From Callorhinchus milii (lineage: Eukaryota), in contig NW_024704742.1 of NCBI RefSeq assembly GCF_018977255.1, positions 121,150,001 through 121,214,000 on the forward strand: a stretch of DNA of 64,000 nucleotides, read 5' to 3'. Positions within the stretch are counted from its first letter, which is position 1. The number at the start of each line of letters is the position of its first letter. Positions 9,182 through 45,595 of this stretch are shown in pieces. The notes below the pieces were generated by a model. It did not search any database, had not been told where the DNA came from, and saw nothing but the letters and a program-made list of their open reading frames with translations. The position numbers were made by a program, and so were the translations under genes.

Positions 9182-9313
<132 letters not shown>

Positions 9314-17299: not shown

Positions 17300-18612
17300 C
17301 CTGCCAAATAGTGTCAAAAAAAAGGAGCGCAGTGCGCATGTGCAAACTGCAGCTCGGCGGCAGTGCGCATCCTAAGGCGCGGCGGGAAAGAGGTGGTGGC
17401 GGTGGTGTCCGTCTGTCTCCTCTGTTCGCTCTCCCAGTCAAGGACTTTGCTTTCGGATCGATTTCAATTTGCCGAACGGCGTTTGATTTTTGTATTAAAA
17501 AAATAATCGGGGAAAGGCGGGCGGGGAGGGGTTGGGTGGTGGTGGTGGGGGGGAAAACATACCGCGAAACGACATCAAAAAACAAAACAAACGCGAAAAA
17601 AAAAACCCCACACCCCAGAAGCCGAACGAGTTGGCTTTTATTTTTTTGAGCGGGGGGGCTTCGAAAAAAAAGAAGAAGAACGCGTCGGGACATGAGCGTT
17701 GGCCGCTCCGCGCGCTCCAGTTCGAATAAACTAACGAGGTCTTTTTTTTTCAAAATGAAATTCCGTTAGGGAGGGGGGAGGGGGGGGGGGGAGCAGGGGG
17801 GCGGCCGCGCGCGCGCGCGCACGCGCACGTACGCACGCTTGCGGAGCAGCCCGCGTACGCGCGCCTGCAACAGACAAGGCAAGCGCGGGGGGGTCGGGTA
17901 GGGCCGCGGCTGCGCGCGCACGCGCCCGCGCAGGCGGCCCGCGCGCCCAACGGCTGTTACGGTGACGTCCGCAGAGAGGCTCGTTATTTGGCAGGGCGTT
18001 AATCTCAAGACTTGGAAGAAACCACCGGCCTGGTAACAAAACACCGACCAGCAACAACCCACCCACCCACCCACCGCCAGCCAGCCCTGCCCTGCCCCGT
18101 TTCCGAGACAACCAAACAACCACTGAAACAAAATACACGCACATATATGCACACAAGCGCGCTCAGGTCTCGAAAAGGAACGCTTTTTTTTCTCTCTCCC
18201 TCTCTCTCTCTCTCTCTCTCGCCTTTCACCCGCCGCCTCCTCCTCCTGTTTCTTGAAACCAGATGTATTCCAGACACGTCCAGCACCAGCCGCAGTGGCC
18301 AGAGCCGCCGCCGCCGCCAGCGAGCGAGCGAGCGAGCGATCCATCCCGTTTTGCTGAGTTGAGCCGTCTTCCGAAAAAACAATGAATGATCCCGAAAGGA
18401 GGCGAGGTGTGTGCGTGTGTGTGTTTTTCTTTTTTAAAAAAAAATCAGCCACCCACCCACCCACCCACCGGCTTTCTCAACTGCTGCTTTCTTTCTCACT
18501 TACCATCGCTGCGCTTGATTTCGACGTAAATCCCGATTTGGACTTTTCCGAAATTGACCGCCATGCTTCATCCGCGACCATTCGTCAGTTAACGTCTGTG
18601 TGTGTTTTTTTA

Positions 18613-40059: not shown

Positions 40060-40065
40060 TATAAA
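40060..40065 (+). promoter_or_regulatory. TATA box of the GDF15-like gene
   Basis: TATAAA about 120 nt upstream of the ATG. Confidence 0.55.
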
Positions 40066-40183: not shown

Positions 40184-40478
40184 ATGAAATTACACGGATG
40201 GTATTCCATGTGTCTTCCCATTTCCTTGACAATAATGTGCCTGGCGAGCAGTCCATCACAATCCGCTCTCGGGACGGGAGGGAGAGAAGGGGAACACATT
40301 CGAATCAAAGCGATCAAGAAGGCAGTCATGGAGCAACTGCGGATGAGGAGGCAGCCCGAGCCAGCAATAAAGGAGGAGAAAATGTACCAACTTTACCTGC
40401 AACGTGTGAGGAGCTCAGACCTGACCAACAGGGAACCTCGCCTGAGGATGGACACTGTCAGCATGTTTGTGCACAAGG
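40184..40478 (+). CDS. GDF15-like: TGF-beta superfamily ligand, GDF15-like, exon 1 (signal peptide and N-terminal prodomain)
   Basis: ATG at 40184; hydrophobic leader MKLHGWYSMCLPISLTIMCLASS; prodomain helix RIKAIKKAVMEQLRMRRQP; GTAAG donor at 40479, phase 1. Confidence 0.85.
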
Positions 40479-41199
40479 GTAAGAGCTTTGTGGTGGTGTT
40501 TATTATTTGTGTTTATTATAATTATAAGAGCGATTATTTTAGATGCTCATCGCACTTGCAAGCTTAGCTTTACCGTGATCAAACTCCACAGAGTAGTATT
40601 GCCTCCTAATAGATAAAGATTGTTTAAAGGGTGTCCAGGCTGTCGATTAATTGACCACTAAATCATTATGACATTTTAAACCGATTGTAAAAATTCACCA
40701 CCTTACACAAATGTGTTTTTGTTAGGAATATCTACTTTTTTTTGGGGGGTGGGGTGGGGAGAAATCCTCTGAAGTAAACTTCGGGAGAGGTTTGGATTTT
40801 TTTTAAAAAAAGGAATCAAAGTACATTTGATATGGGAAAGATTTAAGCTATGTATTTAAATCCAAGGTGATGCACACACACACACCATCTACTCTTAATT
40901 AGCTATTGACTCATGGTCTTCCATCAAAGATACTTTAATACAATATAATTTACATTTATACAACGTCTTTCACATCGGGAGCACAGCCTCAGGTGCCCAT
41001 CCAGTACATTCACAGTCCTAAATATAGCTCATTCTTTGATTTTTTAAAAAAAACTAAATCAGATTCCCTCCTCTTTCTCATTTTCTTTTCATTATACACA
41101 AAGATTATCACCATTTCTTTGATGGCTTCAGTCTTAATCTTTCTTTATCTATAAACATTCTTGGCCTCACTAGAACAGCAATAAACGACTCTTATACAA

Positions 41200-41660
41200 A
41201 TGATTCTTGTGTGGCGCTCTTCACATCGCAAAGACGTCTCAGGACGTTGGACAGTCAGGATTTTTTGGACCTGAGCCAGGAGTTGAAGTCAGGAGGGGTG
41301 GAGGACGGGGGTGGGGGGTAGGGTGGCCGAAGGTATGATCGAAGAGGAAGGTCTTTAGACGGAACTTGAAGGAGGCAAGAGAGGGCGTGTGATGGAGGAA
41401 TTGCGGGATAGAGTTCCAGAGGTGTGGGGGCAGAGATGCTGAATGCCCGACCGCCAATGGTGGGATGGGAAGCGCGGGGGACTTGAAGCAGGCCAGTATC
41501 TGCTGAGTGGAGGGAGAAGACAGGCTGATTTGGGGTTAGAAGGTCGCAGAGGTAGGGGGGAGCAAGACTGTGGAGGACTTTGAAGGTGAGAACAGAGGTT
41601 TTGTACTCTATTCTCTGAGGGATTGGGAGCCAGTGAAGCCGGGTGAGAATGGGCATTGTG
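41200..41660 (-). mobile_element. L2 LINE 3' fragment in the GDF15-like intron
   Basis: LTRLHWLPIPQRIEYK peptide and an L2 tail. Confidence 0.85.
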
Positions 41661-44099
41661 AGATTAAACACTCATACATCTGCTTATCTTAGATCTGTTT
41701 ATCTCTCTATAAAGTCCAGGTGCATTCAATTCTGTTCATCTGGTGAAGCTCTTCTAAGATTGTCATTGAGAGGTAATTCCTATCTCACATTCCTCATCCA
41801 ACCTTTCATTTCATCACAACCTTTCAGATCTCAGTCTATTTTGTCAATACTGTAATACTAAGGTGATTGCTGTTCCTGAACATCCTTCTCTTGGTCCTTT
41901 TAAGCTCCAAATACTACATGCTCTTTCTCCTTCCTGATCATTCAGTATTGAAACAAAACTGATCATACCTCCTGCTGCTCTAACCCAATTGTTTCCCAGG
42001 ATTTGAAGACTAGAATTTTCACATTCCTTATCCTCCCAAAAACAGCAATAAATTCTGTGCTTATATGAAAAGTCGAGAAATAGATTTTATTTAGCATTTA
42101 AAATATCTACTGCCGTGGATTTACATATTGACACTTCTGTAGTGTTGCAATGCTTGACTAAGAGATGCACTTTTTCTCTTGCCTGTTTCTCCAATTTGTC
42201 ATAATATGTGGCACAGAGTGAATATACTTTGTACCTTCTTGTATCACTGAAAATGGCCTCTTGATAAGTTTATAAACACAGGGCTTACACCATATTTATA
42301 CTGTAATTGCTGTTGTTAAACTTTGAAGAAAATAAATCTAATGGTAAGTAAATTGAACCTAACCCAATTCCCTGTGATACGCTGTGTGTAATTATTTTCT
42401 ATTTACCCAATTTTCATCAAAATCACCATTTGGAATTCTCCACTATATAAAAAATACTATGTGTGGATTTTATTTATAAAAATGTAAAAGGATCTGCTCC
42501 AGTCATATCAGTCAAGGTGATTGCCCTACAGAACACATGAGCGTCCCAGCATTATTTATTATTATTAATAATAATAGTGATAATAGTTCTTACATTTGAT
42601 ATGGTATCTTTCACACTGGGGGGATGGCTTACAGAGTTTCACAGGATTTACTGGAGGAGAAGTGAATGTGTACTTTGTTTATTTGTGCGTTATAGGCTGT
42701 GCACAATTGGCTGCTAGTTTTCGCCCACAAAAAAAGTCAATTCATTCTGTGAAGTGCTTTGGGACATCTCGAAGATGTGATAAGGCTCTATATCAAATGT
42801 AAGGATTATTATTATTGTTTCCAGACAGTTTCTTGCACCTGATAGCGGCTAAGTCCAAAGATGCAATAATTTAGGGCCGGGAGCAGATTCACTTCCTGCC
42901 TTCTCTACTTGGAAATTCATAAAGATAAGTTATGATAACGGAATCTTAAATAGGATTTTCTAAATATTGGGGCAAAAATTCCAAATCAGAGCAATCAATA
43001 ATAACTTAAACATATAATAATGCACATGGAGTAGTAACTACTAAACCATAATCTAAATAAAGTGGTTAGTATAATAATAATAATAATCTTTGCATTTGAT
43101 ATAGTGCCTTAGCGTCAGGGACAGTTACAGAGTCAAAATATTTCATAGCACTTTACAGAGTTTTCTGTAAAAGTGCAGCGATTGTGTATTTGTACACAAA
43201 CGTGGTAGCCAGTTTGTATAGAACAATGTCCCACCAACAACCATTACGTGAATGGCTTTTTTTTATTAAGGGGATTTTTGGCCAGGACATTAACAACCAG
43301 CTGGTCATGAAGAGCAAGTTTATGACAGACAACAGGAAATATTTCTTTCCATAGAAGCTAATCGCTAGCTTTAAAAGATTACAAGGAAAGATGAGTGAAT
43401 CCAAGACACTGGATTTATTGAAGGAACAGCTTATAGCTATGAGATCATGTGGGCCAAAGGGCCTTCTTCATCCATACGTCCCTTGTGATCTTGCAAATCT
43501 TGTTTTCCAATTATCATCACGTATCAAGGACCTGATGCTGAAAGTTGTCAAAATGTAGCTCCAAAACAGGTACGAGTGAATGAATTCCAAGGTTGCAATA
43601 TAATTTTATGTTTCAGGTGACAGCTATAAACCACTGTTGTTTTTGCTCTTGTTTATTACATCTTTTAAATATCTGGTAATTTGCTCTCATGTATTTATTA
43701 GTCTTAGTGTAATTCACTGAGAAGAATGCCTTCACCTTATCATGAACTCTGTCCACTGGTAATCTGTCATGTGACATCTCTCTAACTGTCCCTGATCTGA
43801 GAGCCCCTCTTCTTCCATACAGGGTTGGGAATGATCTCTAGGAAACAATCCATTCAACTCCTCTTGCAACTCAAAAGAATGCACCCATGCTGACACACAA
43901 AGTTGTTGCAGATTAACAGAAAGTGCATTTGATTTAAACGTCCAAAAGTTAGAAAAATAGAAATATTATTTGAGCTGTATTGCATTCCACCTGAGTGAGT
44001 AATACACAGCTTTGGAGCCATGTATTTGATAAACCAGTTGACCTTTGCTCATGTTGTGCTGTACAATATATGACGCATGTACAAAATGTTCATTGTATC

Positions 44100-44435
44100 A
44101 GCAATAATCCCCCAAATAAAATTGTCATTCACTTCATAGCTGTTCAAATGCATGGCCAATTTTCTTTTAACGCTGAGAGATTATTGGTCAGGACACGAGG
44201 AGAAACACCCTTATTTTTTCAAACAGTATCATGGGATCTTTAACATCTATCTGAACAGGCAGATAGGCCTCATTTTAACATCCAAAGGAAGTCACCTTCT
44301 GACAATGCAACACACTCCAGCACTAAAGTGCCATTCTAGTTTATGAGCTCAAGGATCCCGACATGGAGCTTTGAACCCAAAACATTTTAACTCAGAGGCA
44401 AGAGTGCTACGAACTGGACCAGATGTCAGCTGACA
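44100..44435 (-). mobile_element. Old Deu-domain-like SINE
   Basis: Similar to the 51335-51782 copy (ATGGGATCTTTAACATC..CTGAACAGGCAGA). Confidence 0.6.
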
Positions 44436-44540
44436 CCTAGAGAAAAGAAATATTCAATCTAGAAACATTTATTTTGAAATGAGGGAGTATAAAAAATGCA
44501 CGTAAACTTAAATTAATACATATTCTTATTTTTGGAACAG

Positions 44541-45364
44541 GAACAATTTTGGAAAACAGCGGTGGGACAGTAAATTATTTCACCAGTGACAAACAACGGG
44601 TGCACTTTAACCTCACTACCACCAAGAACAAACTTGTCTTTGGCAAAATAAAGATTTCACGAGGTGAACTTAAAATCTACAGGCGCGACGAGCAGAATCC
44701 AAACTTACTGGAGAAAAGGAAGTATGGAACACTGCAGCTTGTCAAAGTCTACCAATTGCTCAAGCCTGCAATTGAAAGGAAAGAATTTCAGCGCCATCTT
44801 CTTGGTTCTAGACTCATTAAGACAAATTCTGAAAAGGCCGAAATGGTTGACATTCGAAAAACTGTTCAGCATTGGATAAACTACCCACAGGAAAATTTTG
44901 GTCTTGAAATTGTACAGTTTCCTCGGCTTCCCAGCAGTAAACGTGACCTAAACGACAAAGCAACTATTGAAGCAGAGTTGGAAATAGAAACACAGAAGGT
45001 TTTCAAAGAAGTTCGCCAACGCCGTGAAAGTGACACTGAAGACTGTCAGAGAAATCAGGTCCAGTGTTGTAGACGGGCACTAAATGTGTCATTTGAAGCG
45101 ATCGGATGGTCAGACTGGGTCAAGGCCCCCCTAAATTATAATGCCTTTTACTGCGATGGTACTTGTCCACCTAAGTACAAACTTGCCACAATGCATACAC
45201 TGATCCAATCAAATATGAATCGCGTTTCCCATGGAGCTGTTCGTACTCCCTGCTGTGTCCCCGCCTCCTATGAACCACTAACTCTTCTCCATTTTAACAG
45301 TGATCGGAAATTAACAGCTACAGCATTTGATGACATGATTGTGTCTAAATGTCATTGTTCCTAA
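44541..45364 (+). CDS. GDF15-like: TGF-beta superfamily ligand, GDF15-like, exon 2 (prodomain arm, RQRR furin site, 112-aa cystine-knot domain)
   Basis: CAG acceptor at 44538-44540, in phase with exon 1; RQRR at 45014-45025; mature domain with C-x6-CC, GWSDW, CDGTCP, PCCVPASYEP and terminal CHCS; TAA at 45362-45364; 372 aa in total. Confidence 0.93.
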
Positions 45365-45390
45365 TGTTATCATTAAAAAAAATCTAGTTG

Positions 45391-45428
45391 TAATATTTAT
45401 TGAAAAACATTATTTATTGATATTTATG
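45391..45428 (+). promoter_or_regulatory. AU-rich element cluster in the GDF15-like 3' UTR
   Basis: Three ATTTA pentamers (45395, 45412, 45422), one within TTATTTATT, starting about 30 nt after the stop codon. Confidence 0.5.
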
Positions 45429-45595
45429 TGCAATGTCATCTGCTGTAAAATTATTTTGACTCCTGATTGTACTCTGGTTCTGTCTCTCTAATTTCTTATC
45501 TACAATTTCAGATTAAATCTGATAATGCAAGTAGGACAATTGCATTACATTTTTTGTTTTTTTTAAAAAAAGGTTTAGTTTTGACAACAATTTTA

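Follow-up and report, generated by a model that had tools for sequence, protein, structure and literature searches.

A TGF-beta-family ligand gene of Callorhinchus milii, annotated as BMP2-like, is very probably a whole-genome-duplication sister of GDF15

We analysed a 64,000-nucleotide stretch of the Callorhinchus milii genome (NCBI RefSeq assembly GCF_018977255.1, contig NW_024704742.1, positions 121,150,001 to 121,214,000; hereafter the window) that carries, at 40184..45364, a two-exon gene for a ligand of the TGF-beta family. NCBI holds the identical 372-residue protein as XP_007890424, 'bone morphogenetic protein 2-like [Callorhinchus milii]'. The gene is very probably the sister, by whole-genome duplication (the ohnolog), of GDF15 (MIC-1), the appetite and nausea hormone, and we provisionally call it 'GDF15b'; the paralog below means this gene and its orthologs. 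The jawed-vertebrate ancestor would thus have had two GDF15-type genes, one of which survives, misnamed, in at least 25 fish species. The initial annotation had proposed a second GDF15-family ligand, and this stands: the genome holds a separate GDF15, and the window gene is sister to the GDF15 clade and not nested in it.

When the mature domain was searched against the whole genome, 24 of 42 candidates were matches, among them a second copy at 9.396 Mb of another contig (C21; the contig of the window is C1), 56% identical in the mature domain, while the remaining full-length matches were only 30-38% identical. The C21 gene is an intact two-exon frame of 381 residues, with a phase-1 intron at the place equivalent to that of the window gene. 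Its protein scores 100.6 bits against human GDF15 and 73.7 against the next family. For the window protein, human GDF15 is the best PDB match at 87.5 bits, with GDF5 next at 83.5. Judged by these comparisons, the C21 copy is the true GDF15 of Callorhinchus milii. The same search returned no GDF15-like gene on C5 or C29. The NCBI model of the C21 gene, 'GDF15-like', is truncated to 191 residues; the full frame occupies C21:9395724-9401748 and carries a glycine-rich insert.

Phylogenetic trees were built from rows picked by hand from the collected proteins. A mature-domain tree (55 rows, 115 columns) gave 100/100 support to the split between the GDF15-like group and 16 other Callorhinchus milii ligands, so that the window gene grouped with no other known family among them, and joined the shark C21-type proteins with bony GDF15 at 98/98. 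The outgroups, whose names are presumptive labels, were of BMP, GDF5/6, activin, myostatin and GDF9 types, with AMH/GSDF present as one tentatively labelled row and TGF-beta proper, Nodal, Lefty and GDNF left out. A full-length tree of 33 rows and 375 columns with four invertebrate outgroups recovered a GDF15 clade (100/99) and a paralog clade (98/97), within each of which chondrichthyans are sister to bony fishes. A lamprey-rooted full-length tree of 31 rows also recovered the paralog clade (98/99). Approximately unbiased (AU) tests on 21 of the 33 rows (12 dropped, including long branches; LG+G4) rejected a shark-only duplication (p=4e-5) and the window gene as ortholog of bony GDF15 (p=7e-54). 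The two-clade trees and the AU tests therefore place the duplication before the jawed-vertebrate radiation; as the gene trees read, it falls after the split from invertebrates and before that between cartilaginous and bony fishes. The lamprey, amphioxus and acorn worm proteins appear to be single-copy pro-orthologs of both GDF15 and the paralog.

Three other identities for the gene can be weighed against these trees. They are a BMP2/4-like gene, a translocated GDF15 ortholog and a shark-only duplicate; the grounds for them are the NCBI names, one sterlet record named GDF15, the close PDB scores for GDF15 and GDF5, and a mature identity of 63% between shark paralog and shark GDF15 vs 62% between shark and bony paralogs. 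The 100/100 family split and both AU rejections leave the three together a very small probability. A BMP2/4-like gene is excluded by that split, with BMP2/4-type genes lying elsewhere in the genome; a translocated ortholog by the separate C21 gene, the 33-row tree and the AU test; and a shark-only duplicate by the AU test and the 33-row tree. On sequence grounds the NCBI name 'BMP2-like' is wrong.

The chromosomal surroundings of the two genes point to the mode of duplication. On C21 (10.7 Mb) the order is PDE4 (8.39 Mb), SSBP (8.85), ELL (8.89-8.93), JUN (9.07), COMP (9.34), CRTC (9.37), GDF15 (9.40), MAST (9.45) and PIK3R (9.47-9.48 Mb), with COMP, CRTC and MAST each identified from one motif with a plausible flanking peptide. 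On C1 (139 Mb) it is ELL (108.9 Mb), SSBP (114.3), PIK3R (119.2), KIF2A, the window gene (121.19), ZSWIM (121.30) and PDE4 (122.4 Mb). Four families (PDE4, PIK3R, SSBP, ELL) thus flank both copies; PDE4 and PIK3R, within ~2 Mb of each copy, are closer flanking pairs than SSBP and ELL. Third and fourth copies of PDE4 and JUN on C5 and C29 complete a four-fold block. We take the C21 neighbourhood to correspond to 19p13.11, where human GDF15 lies (the labels PDE4C/JUND/SSBP4/ELL/MAST3/PIK3R2 being presumptive), and that of C1 to be the human 5q12-q15 set; C1 and C21 may correspond to chicken Z and 28. The window gene itself lies outside the C21 PDE4/JUN/SSBP/ELL/MAST/PIK3R block, away from the position strictly expected of a GDF15 ortholog. 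A further GDF15 in SSBP/ELL synteny, which the initial annotation suggested looking for, is thus the C21 gene that groups with bony-vertebrate GDF15. The 5q/19p13 paralog pairs named in the initial annotation held at family level for SSBP and ELL; for ZSWIM, a ZSWIM4-type locus was not found on C21. For PGPEP1, expected beside GDF15, there was no family match genome-wide, and its motif was not seen in the 150 kb of C21 examined, though short exons may escape such searches. A fourth, divergent Jun-family locus lies at C1:75513934-75514260, possibly another ohnolog absent from mammals.

Because both loci sit on matching paralogous blocks, a whole-genome duplication is the likely origin of the pair, and we hold it with high confidence. 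Among the other species that have both gene types and size data, the chromosome that carries the paralog is clearly larger than that of GDF15 in 9 of 12, the exceptions being Narcine, lungfish and tarpon. The second duplication has been described as jawed-vertebrate-specific, giving pairs of large chromosomes and microchromosomes (PMC7269912, PMC8302630), and the C1/C21 pair fits this pattern. The event was probably this second round. In Narcine both gene types are on contigs of identical size (375,657,673), suggesting a chromosome fusion.

Several observations weigh against a sister relationship by genome duplication. In the mature-domain tree lamprey joined the bony paralogs at 93/85, and the root, set by distant TGF-beta outgroups, fell among the shark paralogs; because this rooting is an implausible long-branch result, that tree is used here only for the GDF15-clade and family-level splits. 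The GDF15 clade reached only 84/69 in the 31-row lamprey-rooted tree. The placement of lamprey is unstable, outside both clades at 88/81 in the 33-row tree and with the GDF15 clade at 86/86 in the 21-row set, and since it varies among trees the phylogeny does not separate the first round from the second. Synteny was read in one genome, that of Callorhinchus milii, and the identity of neighbouring paralogs (for example PDE4C vs PDE4D) is presumed from human gene positions, KIF2A excepted. A small-scale duplication in the jawed-vertebrate ancestor, later moved by chance onto the paralogous block, would yield the same gene trees, which alone do not distinguish the two origins; it would also suit the differing immediate neighbours (KIF2A/ZSWIM vs CRTC/MAST) and the absence of copies found on C5 and C29. 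The four families flanking both copies, PDE4 and PIK3R so closely, and the larger chromosome of the paralog in nine of the 12 other species argue for whole-genome duplication instead, and we regard a chance relocation as improbable.

Members of the paralog clade come from 17 chondrichthyans, coelacanth, lungfish, four sturgeons, paddlefish and tarpon, and 14 species have both gene types (ten chondrichthyans, coelacanth, lungfish, paddlefish and tarpon). Four of these members have the accessions XP_064413609 (coelacanth), XP_043920427 (lungfish), XP_041110523 (paddlefish) and XP_036383761 (tarpon). The full-protein search gave 105 proteins of 1899 candidates, with sequences of 13 other chondrichthyans (55-71% identical, each labelled hypothetical or BMP2/4-like) at the top. 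Cluster look-ups added three chondrichthyans, coelacanth and the four sturgeons, and a profile search (best 150 of 3402) added paddlefish, lungfish and a divergent tarpon protein. Querying with the C21 exon returned 12 chondrichthyan GDF15-type proteins among 13 matches, and a homolog query with exon 1 only gave nothing beyond the identical protein. A fast tree was built from 280 of 285 collected proteins; its paralog clade, supported at 0.92, comprises 33 rows. All named rows are chondrichthyan, coelacanth, lungfish, sturgeon, paddlefish or tarpon, and three are nameless. No tetrapod or other teleost member of this clade appeared among the ranked matches listed, and more divergent members may have been missed because sorting by profile score nearly missed the tarpon member. 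The loss in mammals rests also on the known set of mammalian ligands. The initial annotation was therefore right that the gene is kept in Callorhinchus milii and too narrow in confining it to that lineage, and the interpretation now covers five major fish groups instead of a single lineage.

Some members of the clade are unusual. The tarpon gene, a fast-evolving third GDF15-type gene called 'GDF9-like', joins the sturgeon paralog (96/91, on a long branch), which suggests that the paralog survives in a basal teleost. In some sturgeon models the C-terminus is altered and extended, and one Mustelus isoform, of 140 residues, consists of exon 1 only; either may reflect model errors or alternative splicing. 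In lungfish the paralog and GDF15 alike are without the inter-chain cysteine, with Gln and Ser at the C273 column, where the other rows of these groups keep Cys. NCBI labels on clade members include 'BMP2-like', 'BMP4-like', 'BMP5-like', 'DVR-1-like' and 'GDF9-like', and annotations in shark, sturgeon, coelacanth and lungfish genomes can now be corrected.

Receptor genes were sought in the same genome. Searching for GDNF domains identified seven loci with 15 exon matches between them. A GFRAL-type exon occurs at a single locus (C3:7.64 Mb, E=6e-15 to human GFRAL); of the other loci, one matches GAS1 and five resemble GFR-alpha or GAS1 by eye. RET is present, with CLD1 at C7:15.52 Mb, and one RET locus was found. 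As only one GFRAL-type and one RET locus were found, a new receptor is no more likely than one shared with GDF15, and the proposal of an uncharacterised ligand-receptor system in the initial annotation goes too far. By type, the loci besides GFRAL are four GFR-alpha-like (C1, C7, C13, C28) and two GAS1-like (C26, C53).

Human GDF15 contacts RET through W228, M253, Y297, Q247 and Q256, and substitution of W228 or Y297 abolishes RET recruitment (PMC6760901); V283 and I285 are given as its key residues for GFRAL (PMC12058240). The window protein has W, M, F, K and L at the five RET columns and T and L at the two GFRAL columns, and equals the shark GDF15 consensus at five of these seven. The W228/M253/Y297 columns read W, M, F in 14/14 chondrichthyan paralogs and 12/12 chondrichthyan GDF15, and the V283/I285 columns T, L in both groups. 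Because W, M, F, T and L in the paralog match chondrichthyan GDF15, the contact residues favour a shared receptor in sharks and chimaeras, which we give about an even chance. In cartilaginous fishes the paralog and GDF15 would then both signal through the single GFRAL co-receptor with RET, a mechanism we rate evenly balanced, the two acting in parallel and probably from different tissues or triggers.

Other residues count against GFRAL-RET use. W228 and the N-terminal cysteine pair also occur in 3/3 invertebrate relatives, so that they are not diagnostic of GFRAL use. In 14/14 shark paralogs K and L replace the minor RET contacts Q247 and Q256, M253 is changed to A and Y297 to L in 5/5 bony-fish paralogs, and the V283 column has Thr, not Val, in 19/19 paralogs. 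This column coincides with the type II receptor position of BMP2, Ser88 (mature Thr86 of the window protein, by ungapped alignments). Ser or Thr is reported there for most ligands that use ACVRII and Val for vertebrate GDF15 (PMC11239237); in our alignments bony-vertebrate GDF15 has Val, Ile or Leu in 26/26 rows.

Because the paralogs have Thr where bony GDF15 has Val, Ile or Leu, canonical signalling stays alive as a rival. The paralog may have kept an older Maverick/Panda-like mode, in which ACVR2/BMPR2 with a type I receptor signals to Smads, while GDF15 specialised on GFRAL-RET. The window protein has an intact WxxW type I motif, and bony-fish paralogs have lost two RET contacts; both are consistent with such a mode, as is Drosophila Maverick, which reportedly signals mainly via TGF-beta receptors and also binds Ret (PMC7017013). 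Set against it, chondrichthyan GDF15 has Thr in 12/12 rows and lamprey Val in 2/2, which means that the knuckle residue does not cleanly separate the clades, and shark paralogs retain Met and Phe at RET contacts. We consider retained Smad signalling possible but clearly less probable than an even chance. Equally tentatively, the paralog may preserve the state of the ligand before GDF15 was captured by GFRAL, signalling to Smads via activin-type II receptors or using the two receptor systems side by side. If so, the change from Thr to Val on the bony-vertebrate GDF15 branch would mark the receptor switch, jawed vertebrates would have begun with two GDF15-type ligands and one GFRAL, and bony-fish paralogs would later have dropped the RET contact.

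The altered RET contacts of bony-fish paralogs (M253 to A, Y297 to L, 5/5), next to an I285 column that remains hydrophobic, could also indicate a modulator, proposed especially for bony fishes: a heterodimer partner of GDF15, or a partial agonist or antagonist that binds GFRAL and is weak on RET. Alternatively the paralog might use another GFR-alpha co-receptor, for which the genome offers the four further GFR-alpha-like loci. Shark members retain contacts of the W228/M253/Y297 type, and we think such a role unlikely.

The paralog shares with GDF15 two exons, the phase-1 intron (vs the C21 copy), the 112-residue mature domain and the 9-Cys pattern; the two form sister clades, with 55-63% mean mature identity for chondrichthyan paralogs, and among chondrichthyans the mature domain is 91% conserved in the paralog vs 88% in GDF15. 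It differs in clade and chromosome, in the Thr at the V283 column vs Val in bony GDF15, in K and L at Q247 and Q256, and in its absence from tetrapod matches. Maverick/Panda-like ligands of amphioxus, hemichordate, brachiopod and mollusc have the same cysteine frame and N-terminal Cys pair, and Ser or Thr at the knuckle in 2/3 invertebrate rows; they are only 43-52% identical in the mature domain, predate the duplication and, with the single-type lamprey gene, are the outgroup to both clades in the 33-row tree. Their label follows PMC11239237 in general terms, not these accessions. BMP2/4 share the cystine knot and the Ser/Thr at the type II knuckle position, but have ~35-38% mature identity, no N-terminal Cys pair and a longer pre-helix loop, and fall outside the clade (100/100). 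BMP16 and TGFB2B, hidden 2R paralogs lost in mammals, are likewise ancient duplicates kept in slow-evolving fishes and mislabelled (PMC5979292); the window gene differs in that its sister ligand exchanged the Smad pathway for GFRAL-RET. The main text of PMC5979292 does not contain the word 'GDF15'.

GDF15 has been treated as single-copy and as having arisen in jawed vertebrates, lampreys being without a clear ortholog; the accessible text of that account (PMC7299427) mentions no GDF15 paralog and no shark. Contrary to its view of lampreys, lamprey carries a gene of GDF15 type. The literature searched, which reaches few subscription journals, holds no description of a GDF15 paralog in these fishes, and the supplements of PMC13450315 (1 file) and PMC13188829 (8 files) gave no match to the paralog. 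The ohnolog database described in PMC13450315 may contain the pair. The proteins are already public under automatic names, and the paralog is apparently unnamed. GDF15 and the paralog are natural comparators for the move of a TGF-beta ligand from Smad receptors to GFRAL-RET, and the paralog bears on whether GDF15-type ligands can act without GFRAL.

The window gene is an intact ligand gene of the TGF-beta family, as the initial annotation read it (in-frame, two exons, RQRR site, 112-residue mature domain and its quoted motifs). Its exons, all on the plus strand, join into 1119 nucleotides encoding 372 residues and a stop, and 40478/44541 is the sole pair with GT..AG and an open frame among exon-end/exon-start pairs tried within ~5 bases. 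A TATA-box-like hexamer at 40060..40065 (+), 124 nucleotides 5' of the ATG, is a candidate core promoter. Coding exon 1 (40184..40478, 295 nucleotides) encodes a signal-peptide-like hydrophobic N-terminus (9-residue hydropathy peak 2.4; predicted helix 4-21; candidate signal peptide) and a prodomain 'straitjacket' helix, and is matched by shark and coelacanth orthologs in tblastn. The single phase-1 GT..AG intron (40479..44540, 4062 nucleotides) contains repeat copies. Coding exon 2 (44541..45364) encodes the prodomain arm, the furin site, the mature domain and a TAA stop. The predicted proprotein-convertase site RQRR (45014..45025, residues 257-260) has its final two Arg unchanged in 10/10 aligned members of the paralog clade. 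The 112-residue mature cystine-knot domain (45026..45361) has nine cysteines, at positions 7, 14, 15, 43, 47, 76, 77, 109 and 111, with the N-terminal Cys pair and the inter-chain Cys76; the extra N-terminal pair (C7, C14) is also present in invertebrate relatives and so is not GDF15-specific. A putative 3' untranslated region (45365..45517, +) has ATTAAA at 45372 and 45512 and three ATTTA elements.

The prodomain, RXXR site and C-terminal cystine knot that mark a TGF-beta superfamily ligand are all present, and Pfam matches the protein to TGF_beta (E=1.2e-28) and TGFb_propeptide (E=2.3e-13). An AlphaFold model (predicted local distance difference test 74.6, predicted template modelling score 0.48) compared with Foldseek has a pro-TGF-beta fold, a comparison that does not separate subfamilies. 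From this anatomy and what is typical of the family, the precursor would be secreted and cut by a furin-like protease after RQRR, releasing a disulfide-linked dimer of the 112-residue domain. An independent public run from the same organism covers both exons with a single coding difference, which is synonymous; the 40478/44541 joint was not listed in three public runs, guessed to be RNA, which gave repeat matches only. Relative to shark orthologs, exon 1 has two small deletions (~9 residues), and its prodomain helix motif has Lys where they have a near-invariant Glu.

The gene sits between KIF2A and a ZSWIM gene on C1. KIF2A, named as the neighbour by the initial annotation, lies head-to-head with it on the minus strand, with coding exon 1 at 18504..18564 and coding exon 2 at 9200..9294; its motor exons are beyond the window, and one of them best matches human KIF2A, identical across 37 aligned residues after the first. 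A gene of the ZSWIM4-8 family has its 3' end at C1:121.30 Mb, ~90 kb outside the window. A search of the 184 kb around the window gene found no further copy of it. By self-comparison within these 184 kb, ~38% of the window is repeat, and its long open reading frames include many reverse-transcriptase fragments of long interspersed nuclear elements.

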